Shown one piece after another: positions 47,799 to 60,130 of a stretch of 64,000 bases of DNA. The position numbers were made by a program, and so were the translations under genes. Numbering within the stretch: position 1 is the first letter of the stretch; each line of letters opens with the position of its first letter. The stretch is taken from the NCBI GenBank assembly GCA_965216565.1, contig OZ244170.1, positions 2,464,001 through 2,528,000 on the forward strand, written 5' to 3'. Below the pieces are notes generated by a model. It was given only the letters and a program-made list of their open reading frames with translations, had not been told where the DNA came from and did not search any database. This DNA is from Bythopirellula sp. (GTDB lineage Bacteria; Planctomycetota; Planctomycetia; Pirellulales; Lacipirellulaceae).

Positions 47799-48692
47799 AT
47801 GAGTATCCCTGCTGGCAAAGAAACCGTTGGCTCTTACCGCCTGTATCACTTGATTCGGGCAGGGGCGATGTACGAGATTTGGGCGGTGCGACCCCTGGAT
47901 CGCGACGAGCCGATGGCCATGAAATGGCTACCCAAAGGCAAGAAGCACACGAAAGAAGCTGCCGACGGTTTGAAGCACGAATACGAAGTGGGCAAATCGC
48001 TCATCCATCCTTCGATCATTAAGACTTTCGACTACGGGACAGGCAAAGACGGCGGTTATTTGGTGATGGAGTTGTTTAAAACTCCTAACCTAAAGCAACA
48101 GATTCACGAAGGCGTCGAAAAGCTGCATTATCGGCTCTCTGAAATATTATGCGCCGCGGCACTGGCCCTGGAGCATATGCACAAAGAAGGCTGGACCCAT
48201 CGCGACGTGAAGCCAGACAATTACCTCGTTGACGAAAACAACGACGTCCGGCTGATCGACTTTACGATTGCCCGCAAGATACCGTCGGGGCTGAGCAAAC
48301 TGTTCAAGAGCAAAGCGCCAGTGCAGGGGTCTTATAGCTATATGTCCCCAGAGCAAATTCGTGGCAAAGAAGTCGACGCCCGCGCGGATATTTACAGTTT
48401 TGGTTGTATGGTATACGAACTGATGTCAGGCAAAGTGCCATTCACGGCGACGTCGTCTTCGGAGTTACTGAACAAGCATCTGAAGGCAAGACCGCAACCG
48501 CTCGACATGTTGCAAAAAAACGTTCAACCAGACTTTGCAAAGCTCGTTCATCGTATGTTGGCAAAAGATCCCAAAGATCGTCCCGACTCATTACTTGAGT
48601 TCTATCGCGAGTTGAAAGCGGGACGATGTTTCCATATTTCTCCGAAACCTCCCAAGCCGGAAGACGAACAGTCTGAGCAGGAGGAAGATTAA
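47799..48692 (+). CDS. Ser/Thr protein kinase
   Basis: AMK, HRDVKPDN, YMSPEQ and DIYSFG motifs. Confidence 0.92.
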   Translation: MSIPAGKETVGSYRLYHLIRAGAMYEIWAVRPLDRDEPMAMKWLPKGKKHTKEAADGLKHEYEVGKSLIHPSIIKTFDYGTGKDGGYLVMELFKTPNLKQQIHEGVEKLHYRLSEILCAAALALEHMHKEGWTHRDVKPDNYLVDENNDVRLIDFTIARKIPSGLSKLFKSKAPVQGSYSYMSPEQIRGKEVDARADIYSFGCMVYELMSGKVPFTATSSSELLNKHLKARPQPLDMLQKNVQPDFAKLVHRMLAKDPKDRPDSLLEFYRELKAGRCFHISPKPPKPEDEQSEQEED

Positions 48693-48694
48693 TC

Positions 48695-49687
48695 ATGGCA
48701 AGTACCGCATTTCGTTTACCGTTTGAACAGCCAATCTACGAATTGTCTGAGCAAATTGATGACCTTGAGAGCAATGACTCAAAGACGCCCGAAATGCACG
48801 ATCGCATTCGCGGTCTGCGGAAACAGCTCACCGAGACAACCAAAACGATCTACAAGAATCTCGGTCCTTGGGAAACGGTACGCGTTGCGCGTCATCCAGA
48901 TCGTCCCATGTTCACCGACTATATGAATTTGGTGTTTGATGAATTTGTCGAGCTACACGGCGACAAGTTTTTTGGCGACGATCGCGCACTCCGCACAGGT
49001 TTTGCCAAGATCGACCAATTCAAAGTGTTGGTAGCCGGGCATCACAAAGGCAAGACCCTCAAGGAGCGCAATGAGTGTTACTTTGGTTGTGCGCATCCAG
49101 AAGGGTATCGCAAGGCCATGGAAAAGATGCAATTGGCGGCTAAGTACGGCTTGCCAATCATCACGCTGATCGATACGCCAGGTGCCTATCCGGGAATTGG
49201 CGCCGAAGAACGGGGCCAGGCCCAGGTGATTGCCGAAAGCATGCTTGCCATGTCGCGACTGCCGGTGCCAATCATATGTATTGTGATTGGCGAAGGTGGC
49301 TCGGGCGGTGCTTTGGGAATTGGCGTTGGCGATCGTGTTGCCGTTTTGCAACACGCCTATTATTCGGTGATCAGTCCCGAAGGCTGCGCCGGCATCCTCT
49401 GGAAAAGTCACGACTACGCCGAGCAAGCGGCCCAAGCCTTGCGAATCACTTCCAGCCATCTGGAGAAGTTTGGAGCCGTCGACGACGTCATTGAGGAGCC
49501 CCTGGGTGGTGCCCATCGCGACCACCATCAGACGGCGGGTCGATTGAAGATGTATCTCATCAAAACGCTCCGCGAATTGTCGAAATTGCCCACCGACGAG
49601 CTGCTGAGTCAGCGGTACGAACGATTCCGCAAAATTGGCCCGTTCAGCGAGGCTGCGGACGATTCTGGGAGCAATTCTGAGGGCTGA
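48695..49687 (+). CDS. accA: Acetyl-CoA carboxylase carboxyltransferase alpha
   Basis: ARHPDRP, ELHGD, IDTPGAYPGIGAEERGQ, GEGGSGGAL and YSVISPEG motifs. Confidence 0.97.
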   Translation: MASTAFRLPFEQPIYELSEQIDDLESNDSKTPEMHDRIRGLRKQLTETTKTIYKNLGPWETVRVARHPDRPMFTDYMNLVFDEFVELHGDKFFGDDRALRTGFAKIDQFKVLVAGHHKGKTLKERNECYFGCAHPEGYRKAMEKMQLAAKYGLPIITLIDTPGAYPGIGAEERGQAQVIAESMLAMSRLPVPIICIVIGEGGSGGALGIGVGDRVAVLQHAYYSVISPEGCAGILWKSHDYAEQAAQALRITSSHLEKFGAVDDVIEEPLGGAHRDHHQTAGRLKMYLIKTLRELSKLPTDELLSQRYERFRKIGPFSEAADDSGSNSEG

Positions 49688-49947
49688 TTCTCTCGGGCCC
49701 GGCGGTCCATCGGATCGCGGCTGTTTTCCAGAGATTTAGACTTTGCTTGCTCCTTCTAAATCCCCTTTGCTGCATTCACATTCATGGTGCATGCTTCGCT
49801 ACTTCGGGGTCATTTTCGGACGCGCCAAATCGTTCCATTTACGGACAGATTTCTGACGTCAGCATGCGGCTGGTTCATTGCAATTTAGGTGACGGTTTGA
49901 GGCCGTAGGGTGGGGCGTGAGATGCAAATAGCATGTATTCCAGACTC

Positions 49948-49973
49948 TAGCCCCAACGTCCGATAATCATAGT
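49948..49973 (+). repeat. att core copy 1 (attL)
   Basis: TAGCCCCAACGTCCGATAATCATAGT. Confidence 0.95.
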
Positions 49974-49990
49974 GGAGTATGGCGTAAGCT

Positions 49991-50080
49991 GGCACTCATT
50001 CTAGGTTTCTCAGACCTGGACAGGGCAGTGCGGATCAGTCCCCGTGGGCGAGTCCGCACTGCCAATTTTCTAGGAGTGCC
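49991..50080 (+). promoter_or_regulatory. Hairpin upstream of rep (candidate origin or RBS-sequestering leader); copy 2 at 52864-52953
   Basis: GGCACTC/GAGTGCC and GGCAGTGCGGA/TCCGCACTGCC nested inverted repeats. Confidence 0.6.
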
Positions 50081-50085
50081 ACTAG

Positions 50086-51207
50086 ATGTTCTCTATGAAG
50101 CTCAAGGACCGCGAGTCCTGGCTTGATCCGGAGTCTGCCGGAATTTTGGGGTGGAAGTTGGGTAAGCGTCTGTGGGCCCGTTGCAAGGGCCACGAGGGAC
50201 GTTTCATCACGCTCACGTACGATCGTAAGAATTACCTAGATGCCCAAGATTGTTTCGACAAGTCCAGGGCACAGAAGCATGTCTCTCGTTTCATGCGGAA
50301 GCTAGGAGCAGCTATCAATTGCGATCTGCGTGGTAAGTGGATTTGCAAGTTGGAGTTCCAAGAGGGCGGGTGGGTCCACTGGCACATTCTGTTGCTGGAC
50401 GTTGGTTACATTCCACAGAAGATCGTTCTTGATATCTGGGGTAAGGGCTTCATCCACCTTAAGCAACTCAACGAAGCGAATGCGATGTATCTGACCAAGT
50501 ACGTTGCGAAGGACGGATCGATTCCAGGTTTCGTATATGACTATCCGTCACGGAGCATCAAGGTTGTCAGAGCGTCACTTGGTTTTTGGAACGATGAGCA
50601 GGCGAAGAGAGCGAGGGAGAAGGCGGCTAAGAGCCGTCGTTCTACTCGTGCTCAACTTATGAAGGGAGCGAAGCGGGAAGAACAGTTCTATGTTCCGGTT
50701 GGTGAGAAGCTGCGACAAGAGGCAGTGTTGTTCCGAACTGGGAGGCGAACATTCTCACTTAAGTGCTCTCGTCTTAAAGTACTGCAAGCTCTTCGTAAGT
50801 ACTGCGGACAACCCAAGGTTGAGGGAACATGGCGACACTACGCAGATGGTGATCAAGTACTGGATCGAGTGGTAGTGGAGTGTGATCCGGCGAGGACGAG
50901 CAGCGTGCGGAAGCAATCGCCCGCAGCCGGAGCAACAGCTCCGCATGACACCCGACCACTATTCTTGAAAGGAACCGGTAATCGTGTCGGATGGTGGTTG
51001 GTCCTGGTAAAGGGCAAGTATCGTACTGTTAGCCCTGCTGACATTGCTGGCAGATTGTCCAAGTGGTGGGCTAAGAATGCTCCGTGGTGGACGCTGCAGT
51101 GGATCGAGCAGGAAGCTAGATATCAGCTTGGAATGACGATGCACGGACATTGGGGTGAACCCTCGGATGCTCGTCCTAATTTGGAGAAGGCCTCATGCAA
51201 TTACTAA
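50086..51207 (+). CDS. HUH rolling-circle replication initiator (copy 1)
   Basis: Motif I FITLTY, motif II EFQ...HWHILL and motif III YLTKYVAK. Confidence 0.88.
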   Translation: MFSMKLKDRESWLDPESAGILGWKLGKRLWARCKGHEGRFITLTYDRKNYLDAQDCFDKSRAQKHVSRFMRKLGAAINCDLRGKWICKLEFQEGGWVHWHILLLDVGYIPQKIVLDIWGKGFIHLKQLNEANAMYLTKYVAKDGSIPGFVYDYPSRSIKVVRASLGFWNDEQAKRAREKAAKSRRSTRAQLMKGAKREEQFYVPVGEKLRQEAVLFRTGRRTFSLKCSRLKVLQALRKYCGQPKVEGTWRHYADGDQVLDRVVVECDPARTSSVRKQSPAAGATAPHDTRPLFLKGTGNRVGWWLVLVKGKYRTVSPADIAGRLSKWWAKNAPWWTLQWIEQEARYQLGMTMHGHWGEPSDARPNLEKASCNY

Positions 51208-51857
51208 CAGACATTCAACGAGATTACCTTAGCTGCATTCATTCGCAATGGGAGAGATCAGCTTTGACGTTTTGTCGTAAGAAGCTCAAGGTGTCCTCTG
51301 AATTTCTTCGGCGAGATGAGTTCGAGGAGCATTGGCAAGCTGCGATGGTTGAGATTGCGTATTTAATTCAGCGAGGCGAGTGGGACATCGTGAAGGAAGC
51401 TGAACGTGGCAATGGTCGAATTTGCTGGATAGCTTTGCAGACGTTTTATCGTTCACGGTATGAGCATAGGTATATGGAACGTGTGCTCGCTGATTCTAAT
51501 GAAGCCCTAATCTCCTTAGTTGAGTCCGAAGAACCAGTTGTTGGAGGAATTAAAGCGTCGAGAGTTGTAAACGAATTAAAGATGTTAATATCTGGTCTTC
51601 CAGAGAAGCGTCGATTGGTGATGGAGATGCTGGTTGAAGTGGTAGAAGACGCTAGATTTGATTTGGATGACATGATGCACTGCGTGAAGCTACGCATACG
51701 TGAGGGACTGTCTGAACGTGGTTATGAGTTCACGCCGATTCAAGTACAGAACGCGTTGTTCTCGGGGCGTAAGCAACTATGGGAACAACTTAGAGAACGT
51801 GGCTTGGTTTCAGGTGAAAGACCCCGCCTTGGAAGAGGTGGCGTTGGAAGTAAGTAG
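51195..51857 (+). CDS. Divergent ECF sigma-70-like protein (copy 1)
   Basis: Region-2-like DEFEEHWQAAMVEI and ICWIALQTF; region-4-like LISGLPEKRRLVMEML and QVQNALFSGRKQLWEQL. Confidence 0.6.
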   Translation: MQLLTDIQRDYLSCIHSQWERSALTFCRKKLKVSSEFLRRDEFEEHWQAAMVEIAYLIQRGEWDIVKEAERGNGRICWIALQTFYRSRYEHRYMERVLADSNEALISLVESEEPVVGGIKASRVVNELKMLISGLPEKRRLVMEMLVEVVEDARFDLDDMMHCVKLRIREGLSERGYEFTPIQVQNALFSGRKQLWEQLRERGLVSGERPRLGRGGVGSK

Positions 51858-51875
51858 TTTGGTTGTTTTCGTGTA

Positions 51876-52037
51876 GTTGTTGCACACTATGGGGTTGCCG
51901 CGTGAGATCGCGAAGGCGAGGCGGCGGAAGAGTTCGGTCCGTGTACAAGGGGCATGGAGAAGCTGAGCACGCCGCCTCGCCGTTAGCGACTCGGGGCAGT
52001 CGAACGCGGCAACAGGGTCCCATAGTGTTGCAACAAC
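51876..52037 (+). other. Long rod-like hairpin (candidate single-strand origin, packaging signal or ncRNA); copy 2 at 54749-54910
   Basis: Four nested perfect stems of 9, 9, 10 and 12 bp. Confidence 0.65.
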
Positions 52038-52060
52038 GGTTCATTTGAAAGGAGTTTGTA

Positions 52061-52348
52061 GTGTCTAATTTGTTTGGAGTTGCTAAAGCAGGTTTTGATA
52101 TTGTTGGGGAGGTCACTGAGGAGCGTATTCTTCGAAGTACCAAGGAGTCGGCCAAGGATTGGAAACAACCTGTGTGTAAGGTAGTTACAGCCGGCTCAAC
52201 TTTAGAGGTCCAACTAACTGAAGAACAGCATTCGCAGGTGTTGGTCGGGAATGCTTACCAGTTCGTTGGCAGAATTGCTAAGGAAGGAGGGAGAATCAAC
52301 CTAGTTGTTGAAGAATTAAGGAAGCTGGCGACGCCGAAGGCGTCTTGA
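52061..52348 (+). CDS. Probable ssDNA-binding (OB-fold-like) protein (copy 1)
   Basis: 95 aa, beta-strand pattern, AAGGAG RBS; size and context typical of SSBs of ssDNA replicons. Confidence 0.55.
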   Translation: MSNLFGVAKAGFDIVGEVTEERILRSTKESAKDWKQPVCKVVTAGSTLEVQLTEEQHSQVLVGNAYQFVGRIAKEGGRINLVVEELRKLATPKAS

Positions 52349-52349
52349 G

Positions 52350-52595
52350 ATGAAGATTCGACCGTACCGAAAGGATGGATATCGCCGACGTCGGCGAGTT
52401 CATGTGAGGATGGACGAATCGTTAGTAGATGCAATGGATGAGTTGGCTAGAGCACTCTCGCTGAGTCGTTCGCATCTCTGTGATCTGATTCTCGGCATAG
52501 CTGTCGAGGAGGGTGGTGAATGGTTACGGTCCGCAATCAACAAGCGTGTAAAACAGGCTCTTAATCGAAAACGTGACAGCACTTTTCAAGAATGA
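52350..52595 (+). CDS. Ribbon-helix-helix (CopG-like) regulator (copy 1)
   Basis: RVHVRMDESLVDAMDELARALSLSRSHLCDLIL fits the RHH pattern. Confidence 0.75.
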   Translation: MKIRPYRKDGYRRRRRVHVRMDESLVDAMDELARALSLSRSHLCDLILGIAVEEGGEWLRSAINKRVKQALNRKRDSTFQE

Positions 52596-52820
52596 GCTTG
52601 ATCTTTGATGATTGCTATCCGTATGATTTTGGAAGGTCGTTCGGGGTGTTCCTGAGCGCGAGAGTGTCTGAGAAATCGACGCGCATAAAATGGGCCCACA
52701 TACTCTCTGACGGGGGAACATGTGAGCCCAATGATTAAGCACGTCACTGAAAGAAATTTCACATCCAGATGACGCATCTACATGATACGAAATCGTCGCT
52801 GCAGGGCAAAGCCTATTCGG

Positions 52821-52846
52821 TAGCCCCAACGTCCGATAATCATAGT
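52821..52846 (+). repeat. att core copy 2 (unit junction, equivalent to attP)
   Basis: Same 26-mer with element sequence on both sides. Confidence 0.95.
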
Positions 52847-52958
52847 GGAGTATGGCGTAAGCTGGCACTCATTCTAGGTTTCTCAGACCTGGACAGGGCA
52901 GTGCGGATCAGTCCCCGTGGGCGAGTCCGCACTGCCAATTTTCTAGGAGTGCCACTAG

Positions 52959-54080
52959 ATGTTCTCTATGAAGCTCAAGGACCGCGAGTCCTGGCTTGAT
53001 CCGGAGTCTGCCGGAATTTTGGGGTGGAAGTTGGGTAAGCGTCTGTGGGCCCGTTGCAAGGGCCACGAGGGACGTTTCATCACGCTCACGTACGATCGTA
53101 AGAATTACCTAGATGCCCAAGATTGTTTCGACAAGTCCAGGGCACAGAAGCATGTCTCTCGTTTCATGCGGAAGCTAGGAGCAGCTATCAATTGCGATCT
53201 GCGTGGTAAGTGGATTTGCAAGTTGGAGTTCCAAGAGGGCGGGTGGGTCCACTGGCACATTCTGTTGCTGGACGTTGGTTACATTCCACAGAAGATCGTT
53301 CTTGATATCTGGGGTAAGGGCTTCATCCACCTTAAGCAACTCAACGAAGCGAATGCGATGTATCTGACCAAGTACGTTGCGAAGGACGGATCGATTCCAG
53401 GTTTCGTATATGACTATCCGTCACGGAGCATCAAGGTTGTCAGAGCGTCACTTGGTTTTTGGAACGATGAGCAGGCGAAGAGAGCGAGGGAGAAGGCGGC
53501 TAAGAGCCGTCGTTCTACTCGTGCTCAACTTATGAAGGGAGCGAAGCGGGAAGAACAGTTCTATGTTCCGGTTGGTGAGAAGCTGCGACAAGAGGCAGTG
53601 TTGTTCCGAACTGGGAGGCGAACATTCTCACTTAAGTGCTCTCGTCTTAAAGTACTGCAAGCTCTTCGTAAGTACTGCGGACAACCCAAGGTTGAGGGAA
53701 CATGGCGACACTACGCAGATGGTGATCAAGTACTGGATCGAGTGGTAGTGGAGTGTGATCCGGCGAGGACGAGCAGCGTGCGGAAGCAATCGCCCGCAGC
53801 CGGAGCAACAGCTCCGCATGACACCCGACCACTATTCTTGAAAGGAACCGGTAATCGTGTCGGATGGTGGTTGGTCCTGGTAAAGGGCAAGTATCGTACT
53901 GTTAGCCCTGCTGACATTGCTGGCAGATTGTCCAAGTGGTGGGCTAAGAATGCTCCGTGGTGGACGCTGCAGTGGATCGAGCAGGAAGCTAGATATCAGC
54001 TTGGAATGACGATGCACGGACATTGGGGTGAACCCTCGGATGCTCGTCCTAATTTGGAGAAGGCCTCATGCAATTACTAA
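52959..54080 (+). CDS. HUH rolling-circle replication initiator (copy 2)
   Basis: Translation identical to 50086-51207. Confidence 0.88.
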   Translation: MFSMKLKDRESWLDPESAGILGWKLGKRLWARCKGHEGRFITLTYDRKNYLDAQDCFDKSRAQKHVSRFMRKLGAAINCDLRGKWICKLEFQEGGWVHWHILLLDVGYIPQKIVLDIWGKGFIHLKQLNEANAMYLTKYVAKDGSIPGFVYDYPSRSIKVVRASLGFWNDEQAKRAREKAAKSRRSTRAQLMKGAKREEQFYVPVGEKLRQEAVLFRTGRRTFSLKCSRLKVLQALRKYCGQPKVEGTWRHYADGDQVLDRVVVECDPARTSSVRKQSPAAGATAPHDTRPLFLKGTGNRVGWWLVLVKGKYRTVSPADIAGRLSKWWAKNAPWWTLQWIEQEARYQLGMTMHGHWGEPSDARPNLEKASCNY

Positions 54081-54730
54081 CAGACATTCAACGAGATTAC
54101 CTTAGCTGCATTCATTCGCAATGGGAGAGATCAGCTTTGACGTTTTGTCGTAAGAAGCTCAAGGTGTCCTCTGAATTTCTTCGGCGAGATGAGTTCGAGG
54201 AGCATTGGCAAGCTGCGATGGTTGAGATTGCGTATTTAATTCAGCGAGGCGAGTGGGACATCGTGAAGGAAGCTGAACGTGGCAATGGTCGAATTTGCTG
54301 GATAGCTTTGCAGACGTTTTATCGTTCACGGTATGAGCATAGGTATATGGAACGTGTGCTCGCTGATTCTAATGAAGCCCTAATCTCCTTAGTTGAGTCC
54401 GAAGAACCAGTTGTTGGAGGAATTAAAGCGTCGAGAGTTGTAAACGAATTAAAGATGTTAATATCTGGTCTTCCAGAGAAGCGTCGATTGGTGATGGAGA
54501 TGCTGGTTGAAGTGGTAGAAGACGCTAGATTTGATTTGGATGACATGATGCACTGCGTGAAGCTACGCATACGTGAGGGACTGTCTGAACGTGGTTATGA
54601 GTTCACGCCGATTCAAGTACAGAACGCGTTGTTCTCGGGGCGTAAGCAACTATGGGAACAACTTAGAGAACGTGGCTTGGTTTCAGGTGAAAGACCCCGC
54701 CTTGGAAGAGGTGGCGTTGGAAGTAAGTAG
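54068..54730 (+). CDS. Divergent ECF sigma-70-like protein (copy 2)
   Basis: Identical to 51195-51857. Confidence 0.6.
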   Translation: MQLLTDIQRDYLSCIHSQWERSALTFCRKKLKVSSEFLRRDEFEEHWQAAMVEIAYLIQRGEWDIVKEAERGNGRICWIALQTFYRSRYEHRYMERVLADSNEALISLVESEEPVVGGIKASRVVNELKMLISGLPEKRRLVMEMLVEVVEDARFDLDDMMHCVKLRIREGLSERGYEFTPIQVQNALFSGRKQLWEQLRERGLVSGERPRLGRGGVGSK

Positions 54731-54933
54731 TTTGGTTGTTTTCGTGTAGTTGTTGCACACTATGGGGTTGCCGCGTGAGATCGCGAAGGCGAGGCGGCGG
54801 AAGAGTTCGGTCCGTGTACAAGGGGCATGGAGAAGCTGAGCACGCCGCCTCGCCGTTAGCGACTCGGGGCAGTCGAACGCGGCAACAGGGTCCCATAGTG
54901 TTGCAACAACGGTTCATTTGAAAGGAGTTTGTA

Positions 54934-55221
54934 GTGTCTAATTTGTTTGGAGTTGCTAAAGCAGGTTTTGATATTGTTGGGGAGGTCACTGAGGAGCGTA
55001 TTCTTCGAAGTACCAAGGAGTCGGCCAAGGATTGGAAACAACCTGTGTGTAAGGTAGTTACAGCCGGCTCAACTTTAGAGGTCCAACTAACTGAAGAACA
55101 GCATTCGCAGGTGTTGGTCGGGAATGCTTACCAGTTCGTTGGCAGAATTGCTAAGGAAGGAGGGAGAATCAACCTAGTTGTTGAAGAATTAAGGAAGCTG
55201 GCGACGCCGAAGGCGTCTTGA
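54934..55221 (+). CDS. Probable ssDNA-binding protein (copy 2)
   Basis: Identical to 52061-52348. Confidence 0.55.
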   Translation: MSNLFGVAKAGFDIVGEVTEERILRSTKESAKDWKQPVCKVVTAGSTLEVQLTEEQHSQVLVGNAYQFVGRIAKEGGRINLVVEELRKLATPKAS

Positions 55222-55222
55222 G

Positions 55223-55468
55223 ATGAAGATTCGACCGTACCGAAAGGATGGATATCGCCGACGTCGGCGAGTTCATGTGAGGATGGACGAATCGTTAGTA
55301 GATGCAATGGATGAGTTGGCTAGAGCACTCTCGCTGAGTCGTTCGCATCTCTGTGATCTGATTCTCGGCATAGCTGTCGAGGAGGGTGGTGAATGGTTAC
55401 GGTCCGCAATCAACAAGCGTGTAAAACAGGCTCTTAATCGAAAACGTGACAGCACTTTTCAAGAATGA
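55223..55468 (+). CDS. Ribbon-helix-helix regulator (copy 2)
   Basis: Identical to 52350-52595. Confidence 0.75.
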   Translation: MKIRPYRKDGYRRRRRVHVRMDESLVDAMDELARALSLSRSHLCDLILGIAVEEGGEWLRSAINKRVKQALNRKRDSTFQE

Positions 55469-55693
55469 GCTTGATCTTTGATGATTGCTATCCGTATGAT
55501 TTTGGAAGGTCGTTCGGGGTGTTCCTGAGCGCGAGAGTGTCTGAGAAATCGACGCGCATAAAATGGGCCCACATACTCTCTGACGGGGGAACATGTGAGC
55601 CCAATGATTAAGCACGTCACTGAAAGAAATTTCACATCCAGATGACGCATCTACATGATACGAAATCGTCGCTGCAGGGCAAAGCCTATTCGG

Positions 55694-55729
55694 TAGCCCC
55701 AACGTCCGATAATCATAGTTATGTTCGTT
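55694..55729 (+). other. att core copy 3 (attR), containing a candidate chromosomal dif site at 55702-55729
   Basis: ACGTCCGATAA-TCATAG-TTATGTTCGTT has the 11-6-11 layout and ATAA-N6-TTATGTT of E. coli dif (GGTGCGCATAA-TGTATA-TTATGTTAAAT). Confidence 0.75.
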
Positions 55730-55916
55730 TCCGGGGCGTTTTTCCCCGGGATTTAAGCCATTGGCTCTCTCCTGCTCTGCGAAGTGTGTTCTGTGGCGGA
55801 TAGCTTGATTGGTGGAAGAAGTCGAGCTAGTCTGTCGTCTCACGGCGGCTACCAATCCCCCACAATGAATCCTCAGTTTGCCCCCCCTCTCGCCACTTCA
55901 AAAGGATGTGAATTGC

Positions 55917-57977
55917 ATGCTCTCTGCGACACGATTTCTGTTATCGATTGCCGTCATTTTGGTTGGGATTTTATTCCCAAATCGGGCCTATTCCGACGAA
56001 GGAATGTGGCTGTTCGAGGACCTGCCCAAAGACGCTCTGAAGCGGCAATATGACTTCGAGCCCACAGAGGAGTGGGCCCGGCACGTCATGCTCTCCAGCG
56101 TCCGATTTAGCTCCGGGGGATCGGCCTCTTTTGTCTCCAGTAACGGCCTGGTTTTGACCAATCACCACGTGGCCGAGGACACGCTGCATAAGCTCTCCAC
56201 GCCCGAGCAAAACTACATGAAAAACGGCTTCCTGGCCCAATCGCAGGACGATGAGATTCCAGCCCCCGATTTGGAGCTGAATCAGCTTGTTTCGGTCGAA
56301 GATGTGACCGACCGCGTCGAGGCGGCAGTGTCTGACGAGATGGATACTTCGGCCGCAAAGCAGGCCCGCAGGGCCGTGATGGCGCAAATCGAACAGGAAT
56401 CGCTCGACGCCACGGGTCTGCGAAGCGATGTGATCACGCTCTATGGCGGCGCAAAGTACCATCTATATCGCTACAAGAAGTACACCGATGTACGCTTAGT
56501 CTGGGCTCCGGAATACAAAGCGGCATTCTTCGGAGGCGACAACGACAATTTCGAGTATCCCCGGTACTGCATGGACGTGACGTTGTTCCGTGTTTACGAA
56601 GACGGCAAGCCAGTGGAAGTCGAGCATTTCCTCCGTTGGTCAGAAAACGGAGCGGCCGAAGGCGAACTCGTCTTCGTTTCTGGCAACCCCGGCTATACCG
56701 AACGAGACAAGACGGCCGACGCCTTGCGATTTGCTCGTGACTTTTCTTTGCCAAGCTATCTACAGTACATCACGCGGATGGAAATTGAGCTGCAGCAGTA
56801 TAGCAACGAAAGCCCGGAACATCGCCGACGCGCCCACGATGATCTGTTTGGAATTCAAAACAATCGCAAACGTTCGCTCGGCATGAGTGAAGGTTTGCAG
56901 AATCCAGCGCTGATCGCCACAAAGGAAGCTGCGGAGAAACAATTGCGTGCTCGGCTAGCAGAACGTGACGATCTGGAAGAGTTCGCCACAGCGTGGGATG
57001 AGATTGCCACCGCCCAACAGGAACGAGAAAAGCTCGTCAACGATTCTTTCTATATTTCATCGCGGCTGTACGAGATTGCTTTAGAACTGGTTCTCATGGC
57101 CACCGAAGATGCGAAACCGAATGAAGATCGTTACGAAGAGTTCCGCAATTCGGGTCGCGAATCGCTCGAACACGAATTGTTCTCCCCTGCGCCTATTTAC
57201 AACGATTTGGAGATTGCAAAGCTTGGAGCGAGTCTCTCGCTAGTGGCGGGCAAGTTGGGTGGCGATCATCCACTGGTCGTCACGATGCTTGCCGGGAAAA
57301 GCCCTCGCCAGCGGGCTGCTGAGCTAGTTGCTGGCACCAAGCTCAACGATGTTGAGTTGCGAAAGACACTCGCTAAGGAGGGCGCAGCTGCCATCGAAGC
57401 TTCAGACGATCCCATGATCGAGTTCGTACGAGCGATTGAGCCCTACTACCGCAAAGTTCGCGATCGCCAGGAAGAGCTTGAGGAAATCGAAAAACAGGCT
57501 TACGGCTCAATCCGCGAGGCCAAGACGGCGCTCGACGGTGCGAGCGGTTATCCCGATGCCACCTTTACCCTGCGGCTGGCTCTTGGTGTGGTGAAGGGCT
57601 ACGAAGAAGACGGCGTGTGGGTACCTCCATTTACGACCATCGCCGGTGCCTTTGAACACGAAGAGAAGCACGAAGCTAAGGAACCATGGCAACTGCCGGA
57701 GTCGTATCACGAGCATCGCGACCAGGTGGATGGTTCGGCACGGCTAAACTTTGTTTGTACGGCGGACATCATCGGCGGCAACTCCGGGAGTCCCGTCGTG
57801 AATCGCGATGGCGAGTTTGTCGGCATCATCTTTGACGGCAACATTCAAAGTCTCACTGCTTCGTACTACTACGACGACGTGATCTCGCGAGCCGTCTCGG
57901 TCCACAGCAGCGGCATCCGTGAAGTGATCCGCAATATCTACGGTGCGGACGATTTGGCTGACGAGTTGGGGGAATGA
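55917..57977 (+). CDS. S46 family peptidase (dipeptidyl-peptidase)
   Basis: Signal peptide followed by DEGMW; LTNHH, FGGDNDNFEYPR, PDATFTLR and DIIGGNSGSP motifs. Confidence 0.93.
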   Translation: MLSATRFLLSIAVILVGILFPNRAYSDEGMWLFEDLPKDALKRQYDFEPTEEWARHVMLSSVRFSSGGSASFVSSNGLVLTNHHVAEDTLHKLSTPEQNYMKNGFLAQSQDDEIPAPDLELNQLVSVEDVTDRVEAAVSDEMDTSAAKQARRAVMAQIEQESLDATGLRSDVITLYGGAKYHLYRYKKYTDVRLVWAPEYKAAFFGGDNDNFEYPRYCMDVTLFRVYEDGKPVEVEHFLRWSENGAAEGELVFVSGNPGYTERDKTADALRFARDFSLPSYLQYITRMEIELQQYSNESPEHRRRAHDDLFGIQNNRKRSLGMSEGLQNPALIATKEAAEKQLRARLAERDDLEEFATAWDEIATAQQEREKLVNDSFYISSRLYEIALELVLMATEDAKPNEDRYEEFRNSGRESLEHELFSPAPIYNDLEIAKLGASLSLVAGKLGGDHPLVVTMLAGKSPRQRAAELVAGTKLNDVELRKTLAKEGAAAIEASDDPMIEFVRAIEPYYRKVRDRQEELEEIEKQAYGSIREAKTALDGASGYPDATFTLRLALGVVKGYEEDGVWVPPFTTIAGAFEHEEKHEAKEPWQLPESYHEHRDQVDGSARLNFVCTADIIGGNSGSPVVNRDGEFVGIIFDGNIQSLTASYYYDDVISRAVSVHSSGIREVIRNIYGADDLADELGE

Positions 57978-58083
57978 AGCTCTCGCAAAGGCGCAAAGAA
58001 GTTGAGGAAAGCACACCTCGAGTCACACGGATTTTAGTGGTGGCGTGCTAACGCTGAGAACGGCCGAGAACTTTCACAATCCA

Positions 58084-58163
58084 TGAGCCGAACGCGCTAG
58101 CGTCGGGTAGCACCAGAACAACACTTAGACTTACGCTACCCGCGGCTAGCGCCGTCGGCTCAC
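58084..58163. repeat. About 80-bp palindromic REP-like element
   Basis: TGAGCCGA..GCTAGC..GGGTAG / CTACCC..GCTAGC..TCGGCTCA; near reverse complement of 62241-62321. Confidence 0.85.
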
Positions 58164-58275
58164 TTAGAATTGTTCTCAATTCTTGAAACTGAGTCTGATG
58201 TCTTCGTGTTCTTTGTGTCTTTGTGGTTCACTTCTCTTGTTCTCCGTGCCACTGCGAGTAGTTGAAGAACACCAC

Positions 58276-59016
58276 TCAATAAGCATTGCCGAGGTTGCGG
58301 TCGGCGGTTTGGGGTTGGGTGTCGACGGGGGATGCTGCCGGTTGATTCCAGTTGGAGTTGTCCACGTTTCTTGGCGCGGGTTGCTCTGCGTTGTCGGCAG
58401 ACTGGCTTGGCCATAAGGAACTGGCGTCTGGCAATTGGGGGAAACCTTGCTCGTTTCTCGGCCATTGCACCTGGAAGCCATTTCCCTGGTTCGATTGTCC
58501 ATTGGGGTTGAGTCGCTGTTCGATGCGTTCGACATAGGGATGAATCACTTCGTGGATTTCGGGGGGAACGAATGTTTCGCTGTGGTCGAGCGCGCGGACA
58601 ATGTATTCCCCAGTGCGCGAAGCAATGATCATATCTTTCTGCGCCTGCGGGAGTATCGTTACTGCAAAAAAGGTGATCGCAATGCACAGCAGTGCCCCTT
58701 TGGCCAAGCCAAAGAGTCCGCCCAGTTGCCGATCAAAACTTTCAAGTCGCACTTTGTCGATCACGCCCGAGACCATGCGAAAGATGGTCCAAATGACGAA
58801 GGATGTGCCGATATAGATGGCCAACATCGCTACGAATTTGTTCCAAGGTGCATGGTTGGAAATCATGGGAGCGAGCTGGTCGGCAAATTTTAGCGCGGCG
58901 AAGTAGCTCACGATAAGTGACGCCAGCGAAGCAATCTGCCAGGCCATGCCTTTCCAAAAACCAAACAAGCCGGCGGCCACGAGGACCCCAATCATCAGTA
59001 AGTCGTATGTTTGCAT
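58276..59016 (-). CDS. CvpA (colicin V production) family membrane protein
   Basis: YDLLMIGVL..GFWKG and DRQLGGLFGLAKG motifs. Confidence 0.85.
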   Translation of the reverse strand: MQTYDLLMIGVLVAAGLFGFWKGMAWQIASLASLIVSYFAALKFADQLAPMISNHAPWNKFVAMLAIYIGTSFVIWTIFRMVSGVIDKVRLESFDRQLGGLFGLAKGALLCIAITFFAVTILPQAQKDMIIASRTGEYIVRALDHSETFVPPEIHEVIHPYVERIEQRLNPNGQSNQGNGFQVQWPRNEQGFPQLPDASSLWPSQSADNAEQPAPRNVDNSNWNQPAASPVDTQPQTADRNLGNAY

Positions 59017-59212
59017 CTATCTAGGAGGGGCTAGGAGCTAGGGACTAGGGATTAGGGTCAGAAATGTAGGCTAAACGAGCGCTCCAATCCAGAGAAGACC
59101 TCAATGCTAGCACTGATAGCAGGCTGTTCGACTTCGAACTTTCAGCGATTCCAATCGCCTCCTATACTCCGCCCGCTCTCCCCTAGTCCCTAGCTCCAAG
59201 CCCCAATCCGCA

Positions 59213-60130
59213 ATGGCCGGTTTCAAAACTCATATCACAACCAGTAGTGTACTTGGCGTAGGCTATGCCGGGTTGGGTTTTCATTTGGGAATCCCCTGGG
59301 AGTCTTCACTGCTTGCCGGCGGACTGTGCGGTATTGGTGGGATGCTGCCCGACATCGATAGCGACTCGGGAATTCCCTTTCGCGAATCGATGGGTTTTGC
59401 CGCGGCCATTATCCCTGTGATGATGCTCGATCGGTTACGCGAGTTGGGGCTCAACTACGAACAATTTATTCTCGCCACGGCGAGTATCTATTTATTTGTG
59501 CGATTCGGCCTGGCAAAAATGCTGGCCAAGTATACCGTCCATCGAGGAATGTTCCACAGTTTGCCTGCTGCGCTGATTTTCGCCGGCGTGGCATTCCTAG
59601 TCAGTGGTTCCAACGATCTACAGCTACGCTATTTCAAAGCTTGTGGGGTATTTGCTGGTGTGATGTCGCATCTGATACTCGACGAAATCTATGCCGTCGA
59701 ATGGAAAGGTGGCCGATGGCGATTCAAGAAATCGTTTGGGACTGCCATCAAGCTGTGGGGAAAAAATGGCTGGGCGAACATCTCCACCTACAGCAAACTC
59801 GTTTTGGTGATGTTGATGATTCTTGGCGAGCCGATGGTGATGGAGCGTTATGGCGAAGTCACGCCGCTGGCGATTAAACGCAATAAGCTCAATTCACAGT
59901 TCGCCCAAAACAACCCATTCGCGCCCGCCATGGAAGGCAACGCGCAGTTGCCGCCAACTTCAACCAACATCCTGCCGCCCGGCACACCGATTACTCCGCA
60001 GGCCAGTACGTTGGATCCGAGTCGAATCCCTCCGATCGAAACAGTCCCGATCGACGGCGGCCCTCCCCCGCAAACAGATCGCAACATCTACGACACCGCC
60101 CGGCGATTGTGGAACGAACTCCGCGAATAA
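59213..60130 (+). CDS. Membrane metal-dependent hydrolase (YdjM-like)
   Basis: FKTH, LPDID, HRGMFHS and SHLILD motifs. Confidence 0.85.
   Translation: MAGFKTHITTSSVLGVGYAGLGFHLGIPWESSLLAGGLCGIGGMLPDIDSDSGIPFRESMGFAAAIIPVMMLDRLRELGLNYEQFILATASIYLFVRFGLAKMLAKYTVHRGMFHSLPAALIFAGVAFLVSGSNDLQLRYFKACGVFAGVMSHLILDEIYAVEWKGGRWRFKKSFGTAIKLWGKNGWANISTYSKLVLVMLMILGEPMVMERYGEVTPLAIKRNKLNSQFAQNNPFAPAMEGNAQLPPTSTNILPPGTPITPQASTLDPSRIPPIETVPIDGGPPPQTDRNIYDTARRLWNELRE

Follow-up and report, generated by a model that had tools for sequence, protein, structure and literature searches.

The integrative mobile elements that exploit Xer (IMEXs) are located at the chromosomal dif site, have no recombinase of their own and carry an attP that mimics dif, on which the XerC and XerD proteins of the host act. 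In this work we analyse a 2,873-bp element that stands twice, head to tail, in a stretch of 64,000 nucleotides of the genome of the planctomycete Bythopirellula sp. (hereafter the window, to which positions refer unless they are called genome positions), and which is very probably an IMEX, that is, a rolling-circle replicon devoid of recombinase and virion genes and integrated in two copies on the XerC side of dif. The genome consists of one contig of 5,211,746 bases with no N, of which the window represents positions 2,464,001-2,528,000.

In anatomy the closest described element is TLC-phi from Vibrio cholerae, which is small, encodes an HUH rolling-circle Rep together with a small repressor, lacks morphogenesis genes, has a double-stranded attP made up of the XerC arm and the centre of dif followed by a degenerate XerD arm, and is found at dif, often in arrays (PMC6744903, PMC4246890). 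According to the same sources, TLC needs XafT, a DUF3653 protein, to activate XerD and to use the degenerate XerD arm. The element described here shares this anatomy, and differs in having no DUF3653/XafT, in its genes (encoding Rep, a sigma-like protein, an oligonucleotide/oligosaccharide-binding (OB) fold protein and a ribbon-helix-helix (RHH) protein), in its planctomycete host and in having no known helper; the comparison is one of anatomy. On sequence grounds the element is TLC-type in the anatomy of its site and falls outside the TLC lineage, XafT being found neither in it nor in the rest of the genome. A preliminary description of the locus, made from the letters alone, had called it TLC-like, a designation that can be retained for the site and not for the activation factor.

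Other IMEXs share part of this picture. CTX-phi and RS1 show Xer-dependent integration at dif and head-to-tail arrays, on which Rep can start rolling-circle replication in the chromosome so as to release unit-length single strands, although CTX-phi is described to enter as folded single-stranded DNA (ssDNA) bearing two inverted dif-like sites, to integrate irreversibly and to have virion genes (PMC4246890), whereas the element described here has one direct, double-stranded attP with a centre identical to that of dif. The VGJ-phi type uses a single dif-like attP on double-stranded DNA and regenerates an intact dif, as is the case here, but has both arms, a centre that is dif-like on the XerC side only and a full 7.5-kb phage genome (PMC4246890), in contrast to a centre alike at six of six positions and a degenerate XerD arm in our element. 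Finally, the gonococcal genetic island and LME-1 of Legionella are non-phage or atypical and flanked by dif and a dif-like site, but they extend over tens of kilobases or depend on a single recombinase, XerL (PMC6744903, PMC9765430), as compared with 2.9 kb and a host with both XerC and XerD here. LME-1 revealed the dif of Legionella, previously unknown (PMC9765430). As regards Planctomycetes, dif prediction was reported to have failed in them (Kono et al. 2011, PMC3025954), the word Planctomycetes is absent from the main text of Roux et al. 2019, whose supplements may nonetheless list such hosts, and our literature searches turned up nothing on dif, Xer elements or inoviruses in these bacteria, in agreement with the earlier statement that no such element had been described in them.

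Two identical units bounded by three cores

The two units are identical at all of their 2,873 positions (no mismatch), and the 26-bp core TAGCCCCAACGTCCGATAATCATAGT is found at 49948, 52821 and 55694, with no further copy on either strand of the 5.21-Mb genome, which bears out the arrangement of two units and three cores given in the preliminary description. Each unit contains four co-oriented open reading frames (ORFs), as had also been claimed, all of them intact, and rep is present in two copies genome-wide, one per unit. The positions of these and other features are collected in Table 1.

Table 1. Positions of the features of the window, and sizes or positions of the related elements cited in the text
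Feature	Position	Strand	Remarks
accA (acetyl-CoA carboxylase carboxyltransferase alpha)	48695..49687	+	XerC-side host gene; Pfam ACCA, E 2.2e-131
Element unit 1	49948..52820	+	2,873 bp; identical to unit 2
26-bp core, copy 1	49948..49973	+	8 nt, XerC arm, 6-bp centre and T
attL, hybrid site	49956..49983	+	ACGTCCGATAA as XerC arm, TCATAG as centre and TGGAGTATGGC as degenerate arm on the side of the element
Hairpin 1, between attP and rep	50024..50063	+	11-bp perfect stem; folding z -3.8
HUH rolling-circle Rep, 373 aa	50086..51207	+	PF23343; motif 1 FITLTY, HUH motif HWH, motif 3 YLTKY (two tyrosines)
ORF2, divergent ECF-sigma-like, all-helical, 220 aa	51195..51857	+	hhalign against host ECF sigmas
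Hairpin 2, upstream of ORF3	51915..51981	+	12-bp perfect G+C-rich stem; folding z -4.2
ORF3, OB fold, putative ssDNA-binding, 95 aa	52061..52348	+	AlphaFold2 model and Foldseek
ORF4, RHH, putative repressor, 81 aa	52350..52595	+	RHH_1
Element unit 2	52821..55693	+	2,873 bp; identical to unit 1
Internal junction (attP)	52829..52856	+	XerC arm, centre and degenerate arm; 34-nt junction contig near flank depth
Unit 2 hairpins	52897-52936; 54788-54854	+	
Unit 2 genes	Rep 52959-54080; ORF2 54068-54730; ORF3 54934-55221; ORF4 55223-55468	+	
Intact chromosomal dif	55702..55729	+	XerC arm ACGTCCGATAA, centre TCATAG, XerD arm TTATGTTCGTT; unique in genome
S46 peptidase	55878..57977	+	XerD-side host gene; Pfam Peptidase_S46, E 2.5e-204
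Polar-motif convergence interval	47857..60068	.	last rightward GGGCAGGG at 47857, first leftward GGGNAGGG at 60061
Element G259			3,204 bp
Element G081			4,681 bp
Element L064			2,237 bp
Element L058			3,207 bp
Element L059			2,828 bp
Element L063			2,696 bp
Element L066			2,950 bp
Element L073			2,916 bp
Element G013			left end unassembled
Islands with Rep module	L060 6673-15500; L061 1410-9625; L070 7450-15230		

The first two junctions read ACGTCCGATAA-TCATAG-TGGAGTATGGC, and the right junction reads ACGTCCGATAA-TCATAG-TTATGTTCGTT. The attP thus matches dif in the whole XerC arm (11 of 11 positions) and the whole centre (6 of 6), the XerD arm being degenerate (4 of 11 positions alike, by our own reading). 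The array lies on the XerC side of dif, and an intact dif is restored at its right end. The same mimicry of XerC arm and centre is found in eight related elements, and the geometry of attL recurs in G259, G081 and L064. Among the five features of IMEXs, four are found at this locus, namely location at dif, lack of an own recombinase, an attP that mimics dif and the presence of XerC and XerD in the host, and the fifth, dependence on XerC/XerD, is predicted.

Two further likenesses lie outside the XerC arm. The 8 nt to its left, TAGCCCCA, are identical in host and element (49948-49955 and 52821-52828), and likewise the 9 nt CTACCGGCA in G013, a metagenome-assembled genome (MAG) of the same genus (loci L049/L050); these shared 8-9 nt exceed what the mimicry of a Xer site needs. 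In addition, the block AGGGCAAAGCC, directly upstream of the XerC arm, is common to our element and that of G013.

With respect to composition, the plus strand of the unit had been described as rich in G and T. It is rich in G (0.304, compared with 0.200 for C; in the rest of the window, 0.275 and 0.270, respectively), but not in T (0.246, compared with 0.250 for A). The G+C content is 50.4% in the unit and 54.5% in the remaining window.

Identification of the insertion site as dif

In its form the 28-mer at the right junction corresponds to a dif site, with two 11-bp arms whose inner ends are ATAA and TTAT and a 6-bp centre (ATAA-N6-TTATGTT), and we take it to be akin to dif of Escherichia coli. 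A 14-base pattern was matched, with at most one mismatch, in 40 of 41 related genomes, and ACGTCCGATAA-N6-TTATGTTCG was present in 28 of the 30 loci fetched, in which the arms are invariant and the centre and the outer flanks vary; L014 and L027 were rejected as dif loci, being chance matches of the 14-base pattern. A stricter pattern derived from dif matched 363 of the 401 genomes of the order, including 282 of 301 good-quality ones, nearly always once, and a reversed control pattern rendered almost no matches in the same genomes. Two matches each were found in G063, G094, G109, G115, G150 (where one is a half site of the TTGAG type), G248 and G315, and these genomes may carry further dif elements lacking this Rep.

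The most strand-skewed octamer among 19,487 octamer pairs was GGGCAGGG/CCCTGCCC, which presumably corresponds to GGGNAGGG, a form of the E. coli FtsK-orienting polar sequence (KOPS). The orientation of GGGCAGGG flips between genome positions 2,511,857 and 2,524,893, an interval that brackets both the element and the 28-mer, and is split by replichore (122:22 against 21:132). In a 10-kb scan the best split was found at 2,520,000 (Fisher p 2e-37), and the density of the motif rises towards the site. The strand bias of long ORFs gave no usable replichore signal. The genome encodes XerD (TIGR02225, 363.9 bits, cut-off 329.6) and XerC (TIGR02224, 361.3 bits, cut-off 335.15), both outside the element, as well as FtsK with a gamma domain. 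By four independent criteria, namely its form, its order-wide conservation as a single copy, the switch of a KOPS-like motif and the presence of genes for XerC, XerD and FtsK gamma, the site is the chromosomal dif, as the preliminary description had proposed.

On the XerC side, accA adjoins dif in 25 of the 28 true dif loci of relatives (among loci L011-L040, from many families of the order), so stable a linkage of a housekeeping gene to dif being unusual. The S46 peptidase flank, on the other side, is not syntenic, with no tblastn matches in the 35 loci searched. At the scale of the chromosome, the polarity of GGGCAGGG switches at 2.52 Mb and at ca. 4.6-5.06 Mb, and the GC-skew signal is displaced by roughly 1.1 Mb; dnaA is located at 1.75 Mb, and close to the minimum of the skew, at 3.87 Mb, another DnaA-like frame is present.

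Empty sites and copy number

In runs X1 and X2, which come from other studies and represent related strains, contigs join position 49947 to 55694, skipping 5,746 bp (two units), with 26 letters shared at the joint. Their flanks are 95-99% alike to those of the window (differences at 7 of 548 and 7 of 607 positions), and one of the bridging contigs is 7,701 nt long; only the bridging joint was used, and uncovered parts of the stretch were not counted as evidence. Such a joint is an empty dif site, and the element a recent insertion, so that the empty site anticipated in the preliminary description is found in related strains. In the MAG G013, accA, an intact dif and the right flank follow one another on one contig, and on another an element with a 62%-identical Rep leads into that same dif and flank, 63 identical bases being common to both contigs; occupied and empty alleles therefore seem to coexist in that sample. 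Run X1, whose main population has the empty site, also contains a 186-nt contig, at 3x depth, with ca. 90% likeness to the 5' portion of rep (window 50116-50168), and a related element may be present as a minority in that sample.

Short-read contigs of the same organism (runs X4 and X7) collapse the unit into one contig of 2,899 nt. Its depth is 36.9 in X4, where the flanks have 27.8 and 18 (1.3-2.05 times the flanks), and 155.1 in X7, where they have 87 and 81 (1.8-1.9 times), and a 34-nt contig corresponding to the unit-to-unit junction is near flank depth in both (16.1 in X4 and 85 in X7). These contig depths, which are a rough measure, match two copies per chromosome. It could be argued that the tandem is an artefact of the assembly or of the population, arising from one integrated copy together with a free circular replicative form, or from a duplication present in part of the culture. 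The collapse of the unit in short reads and its modest excess of depth would be compatible with this, and a junction contig at about 1x agrees as well with a pair in tandem as with one free circle for each chromosome. Nevertheless, the single 5.21-Mb contig, with no N, places both copies, an empty-site or single-copy join is absent among the contigs of X4 and X7 (contigs lose rare variants), and the IMEX arrays of Vibrio are usually tandem (PMC4246890), so that an artefact appears improbable, and we keep to two integrated units.

Genes and hairpins of the element

Rep matches PF23343, of the ORF2/G2P type, with 55.7 bits (cut-off 27.8, E 6.3e-15), and the PHROG families of rolling-circle initiators phrog_942 and phrog_3419. 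In an alignment of 33 sequences, T44 and Y45 (TLTY), H98 and H100 (HWH), and Y135, K138 and Y139 (YxxKY) are invariant, and because of the invariance of these three motifs Rep is classified, from its sequence, as a two-tyrosine HUH enzyme; the YxxKY motif presumably resembles that of phiX174 gpA. The HUH nature of Rep, on which the preliminary description had staked its interpretation, is thus recovered by profile search. A HMMER scan of 1.84 billion representatives rendered 759 relatives of Rep at E ≤1e-3 and 87 at E ≤1e-30. The nearest named phage Reps (17 records) belong to Microviridae and to one inovirus-like virus, with 26-36% identity over 28-39% of the protein, and the Rep profile found no match among PDB sequences at E up to 1. 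The Rep tree has poorly resolved deep forks and a bootstrap that did not settle, and does not separate the life styles; we claim no order of events from it.

The product of ORF2 had been called sigma-like, and this receives moderate support. When ORF2 and two homologues were compared by hhalign with 15 extracytoplasmic function (ECF) sigma factors of the host, a colinear alignment of 168 columns was obtained (88.7%, E 2.6e-6), and the positional counterparts of ORF2 in five Phycisphaerae elements gave 98.2% (E 4e-14) against ECF sigmas, with controls against Rep and OB profiles at 0.1-0.2%. The match between ORF2 and those Phycisphaerae counterparts has a P of 0.018 only. On the other hand, ORF2 has no Pfam or NCBIfam match (12.4 bits and E 0.092 with the NCBIfam ECF model, whose cut-off is 130), and sigma regions 2 and 4 are not recognised at curated thresholds. 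Its AlphaFold2 model is poor (pLDDT 55.5), and the top Foldseek matches are mostly ECF sigmas, all at E ≥0.13 and none at ≤1e-3. In the protein Atlas, the nearest clusters are unnamed (0.96), followed by sigma families (0.94) with low counts of shared features, which can be taken as a lead only. ORF2 is therefore probably sigma-like, though unproven.

ORF3 had no match in sequence-family searches (Pfam, PHROG, NCBIfam). Its AlphaFold2 model (pLDDT 88.5) shows a barrel of five strands and a single helix, in the order beta1-3, helix, beta4-5, and Foldseek against PDB rendered 15 matches at E ≤1e-3, including RPA32, Stn1, baculovirus LEF-3 and the OB domains of PolC and lysyl-tRNA synthetase, with PriB (E 1.0e-3) and the single-stranded DNA-binding protein SSB (E 2.2e-3) just below. 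The model shows ORF3 to have an OB fold, which agrees with its earlier description as SSB-like, and its fold together with its constant position beside Rep suggests that it may bind ssDNA. The ORF3 family comprises 13 proteins, each of them beside this Rep. Searches for homologues of ORF2 and ORF3 with a word index returned only the query proteins, and the relatives of both were gathered from loci located by means of Rep and with jackhmmer. As for ORF4, it matches RHH_1 with E 4.7e-4, exactly at the 20.5-bit cut-off; RHH_1 is matched by four of the five members of its family, in whose alignment PxRKDGY and a basic RVHVR strand, followed by two helices, are conserved, and the RHH assignment of the preliminary description is thereby sustained.

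Both of the large hairpins described earlier have perfect stems (Table 1). Hairpin 1 is a candidate origin or operator, and hairpins with a stem of at least 8 bp occur in the attP-proximal spacer of five of the eight elements examined, a further one having a 7-bp stem. Hairpin 2 may be a single-strand origin or a terminator; G013 has a hairpin at the equivalent position, with a different stem sequence. Consensus scans rendered five promoter-like sites, where 2.2 are expected, and no terminators, and are uninformative.

With respect to the genes that the element lacks, no recombinase was found by Pfam among the four ORFs, and the eight tyrosine recombinase matches of the genome are all located outside genome positions 2,513,948-2,519,729. 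Neither was Zot found in the element by Pfam, nor any coat-like gene, defined as a plus-strand ORF of at least 25 aa with a 19-residue hydrophobic stretch (Kyte-Doolittle ≥1.6), the sole ORF with such a stretch being on the minus strand, inside rep. The element is not an inovirus, since it lacks both Zot and a coat gene, and the earlier statement that it has no integrase or capsid is in line with these searches.

Related elements at dif and other life styles of the Rep

Relatives of Rep are present in 8 of the 401 genomes of the order, this one included, and all 18 Rep loci in a collection of species representatives belong to Planctomycetota (Phycisphaerales, Sedimentisphaerales and Pirellulales). 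The arrangement of a half site with a degenerate arm, Rep and an intact dif recurs in at least nine further genomes of Pirellulales and Phycisphaerae (Table 1); L065 was left uncounted, its Rep being about 0.9 kb from a dif-like site with no half site found. The OB gene is present in all ten dif elements and the sigma-like gene in eight of them (not in L064 and G013), and an ORF4-type RHH gene is present in all five Pirellulales elements, the five from Phycisphaerae having RHH-like small ORFs, as judged by eye. One of the ten, the 4.7-kb element of G081 (L052 8320-13028), contains an extra ORF with an HKD-like motif (phospholipase-D/nuclease type, by eye) and small hydrophobic ORFs, and the centre of its attL, TCGCCG, differs in one base from that of its dif, TCGCTG.

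The attachment sites of these elements bear on the agent of integration. In Phycisphaerae hosts the XerD arm of dif is TTATGTATAAT or TTCTGTAAAAT, and the half site of the element follows the variant of its own host. Conservation of the degenerate arms in the family is limited to TG[GA]AG, which three Pirellulales elements share. The outer bases of the XerC arm differ between attL and dif in L058 and L073, and the crossover would therefore have taken place at the centre. It might be thought that Rep itself integrates the element, by strand transfer at a site overlapping dif and with no involvement of XerCD, given that HUH enzymes belonging to other families are able to integrate DNA and that no Xer activation factor was found. 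However, element and chromosome share precisely the XerC arm and the 6-bp centre, the break falling at the border of the XerD arm, the same break is found in hosts with the other dif variants, and the position of the crossover in L058 and L073 is that of Xer recombination. Moreover, relatives that bear an integrase insert at tRNA genes, so that the target follows the recombinase and not Rep. Integration by Rep is hence very hard to sustain, and integration by the host XerCD is preferred.

The same Rep is also found in other contexts. Three islands of 7.7-8.8 kb (L060, L061 and L070), bounded by direct repeats of tRNA 3' ends (of 42 bp in L060), carry a tyrosine integrase each; L060 and L061 have OB and RHH genes and, as cargo, Eco57I-type or N6 methylases and ResIII/DEAD helicases, and the cargo of L070 is a beta-helix protein. 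Inoviruses represent a further context: L076 is a circle of 7,486 bp with Rep, OB, Zot and secretin, L077 has Rep and Zot, and more distant PF23343 Reps occur in Zot prophages, among them L054 (in G087) and L053 (in G081, a genome with a mini element as well). Thus, the planctomycete inoviruses L076, L077 and L054 and the islands share with the mini elements a Rep of the same family and, in most cases, a neighbouring OB gene. They differ in that the inoviruses have Zot and secretin and the islands have a tyrosine integrase, tRNA sites and defence-type cargo, all of which are absent from the mini elements, which are located at dif.

The existence in the order of a full Zot and secretin prophage at dif (L054 in G087, 8.6 kb, with TGTTTC as the centre of its half site), and the lack of any virion gene in our element, could suggest that the latter is a decayed and immobile remnant of an inovirus prophage that has lost its structural genes. 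Against decay, the two copies are 100% identical and their four ORFs intact, presence or absence of the element varies among strains with flanks 95-99% alike and within one MAG population, and the compact layout of 2.2-3.2 kb is repeated in eight elements of two classes (a ninth, that of G081, has 4.7 kb), with recurrence of the sigma-like, OB and RHH genes. A remnant is accordingly a most unlikely explanation, and a mobile element, as proposed above, accounts better for these data.

Proposed cycle of the element

According to the reading we favour, a double-stranded replicative form would pair its attP with dif, and XerC and XerD would exchange strands within the identical 6-bp centre, either with XerD acting first, as in TLC, where this step is independent of FtsK, or with XerC acting first and replication resolving the junction. 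As XafT is absent, XerC would have to act first, with resolution by replication, or some other factor would replace XafT. Once integrated, the degenerate XerD arm would bind XerD poorly and disfavour excision driven by FtsK, as has been argued for TLC and the gonococcal island, and the restored dif could take a second copy, or else a dimeric form could be integrated, to give the tandem. Rep would nick the origin, probably at a conserved hairpin, starting at one origin and ending at the next, which would produce unit-length single strands and release a unit circle with no need of excision, as in tandem CTX. The OB-fold protein would coat the single strand, the RHH protein would repress rep and the sigma-like protein would direct transcription of the element. 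Transfer between cells would most likely take place as a satellite of the planctomycete inoviruses that share the Rep and OB module, at roughly equal odds with an unpackaged, plasmid-like life.

Several observations weigh against this reading. No origin or nick site was found, and an alignment of the region upstream of rep in four elements conserves only the XerC arm. DUF3653/XafT (PF12375) has no match genome-wide, the four ORFs showing none at E up to 1, and it was not found either in the members of the ORF2, ORF3 and ORF4 families. The use of host XerCD, claimed in the preliminary description, is in accordance with the dif site, the dif-like attP and the presence of XerC, XerD and FtsK gamma in the host, Xer dependence, circles and ssDNA being predictions from sequence. 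The depth check that had been proposed, made on contigs in place of mapped reads, fits two copies and gives the same result for a tandem pair and for one integrated copy plus one free circle, between which it cannot decide. As for the site, the maximum and minimum of the cumulative GC skew are at 1.40 and 3.86 Mb, respectively, and not at dif (2.52 Mb), around which, at 2.48-2.62 Mb, the skew shows just a local wobble, a mismatch that is unexplained. GC skew was dropped as a marker of the terminus after the octamer analysis had placed a sharp reversal at the site, and it is because of this sharp reversal that the polar motif is given more weight. Also, accA is linked to the site throughout the order, so that conservation alone could reflect a signal associated with accA, a possibility against which the polarity switch argues in this one genome. 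Finally, no Zot or inovirus prophage was found in the genome by Pfam Zot or by tblastn with four planctomycete Zot-like proteins, and the Rep, OB and RHH module is also found in the virion-free tRNA integrase islands.

The last two points concern the question of whether the element is packaged. The preliminary description had proposed an ssDNA plasmid or satellite and had suggested a search for an inovirus-like helper encoding Zot/pI, which came out negative. An HUH Rep of the rolling-circle type suits the first part of that proposal, and the satellite part stays an inference. A satellite would be stranded here, since no Zot or inovirus prophage was found in the genome. It can be contemplated, with a probability somewhat short of even, that we are dealing with an integrative plasmid of the rolling-circle kind, never packaged, which replicates as a small circle, parks at dif via XerCD and spreads by transformation, vesicles or mobilisation. 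Neither Zot nor secretin nor a coat-like gene was found in the element or the genome, the module is not bound to phages, as it is also found in integrase islands that have no virion genes, and only one of the ten genomes with mini elements is known to hold a Zot prophage (G081, L053), the other nine not having been searched. Packaging is favoured, on the other hand, by the fact that genuine inoviruses (L076, which has Zot and a secretin) have the Rep and OB pair as their replication module, that L076 is located among the mini elements in the Rep tree (support is weak, 92/93, and deep forks are open), that no mobilisation or transfer gene is present, and that TLC sets the precedent of a satellite with such an anatomy (PMC6744903, PMC4246890).

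A bolder proposal, which we hold to be improbable, is that no IMEXs smaller than these are known (eight of the nine elements sized have 2.2-3.2 kb) and that they form a phylum-wide lineage that hijacks Xer without XafT, the sigma-like protein being a new factor for Xer activation or targeting, or one that couples expression to the terminus or the division site. The sigma-like gene was not detected among the ORFs after Rep in four integrase or inovirus relatives, by single-sequence tests, which are weak. If the sigma-like protein were such a Xer factor, it would provide a handle on the timing of dimer resolution in planctomycetes, which lack FtsZ.

Implications for Planctomycetes

The concept of IMEXs is well known; the novelty lies in the host phylum, in how small the element is, in its combination of genes, with one for a sigma-like protein among them, in the lack of XafT and in the definition of a planctomycete dif with its polar motif. 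The element would pin down dif, the KOPS-like motif GGGCAGGG and the terminus of replication in Planctomycetes. Since these bacteria are described to divide without FtsZ (PMC12283558), a defined system of dif, XerCD and FtsK gamma represents an entry point to the study of their chromosome segregation. Xer-exploiting elements would extend beyond Proteobacteria, with a different gene set and no XafT, and it can now be asked whether a degenerate XerD arm works without XafT. The finding of the Rep and OB module in three life styles (inovirus, integrase island with defence cargo and minimal hitchhiker of dif) points to an exchange of modules among ssDNA elements. In addition, a 2.9-kb unit predicted to replicate itself and to integrate site-specifically could serve as a genetic tool, of which planctomycetes have few.

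A prophage on the other side of dif

The 8.6-kb Zot and secretin prophage of G087 (L054 2208-10850) is located on the XerD side of an intact dif. Its end reads TTGGCAGCTTG-TGTTTC-TTATGTTTGGT, which corresponds to a degenerate XerC arm, the centre of the host and a near-XerD arm. Judging by this anatomy, the prophage represents a second IMEX class within the order, its geometry being opposite to that of the element described here.

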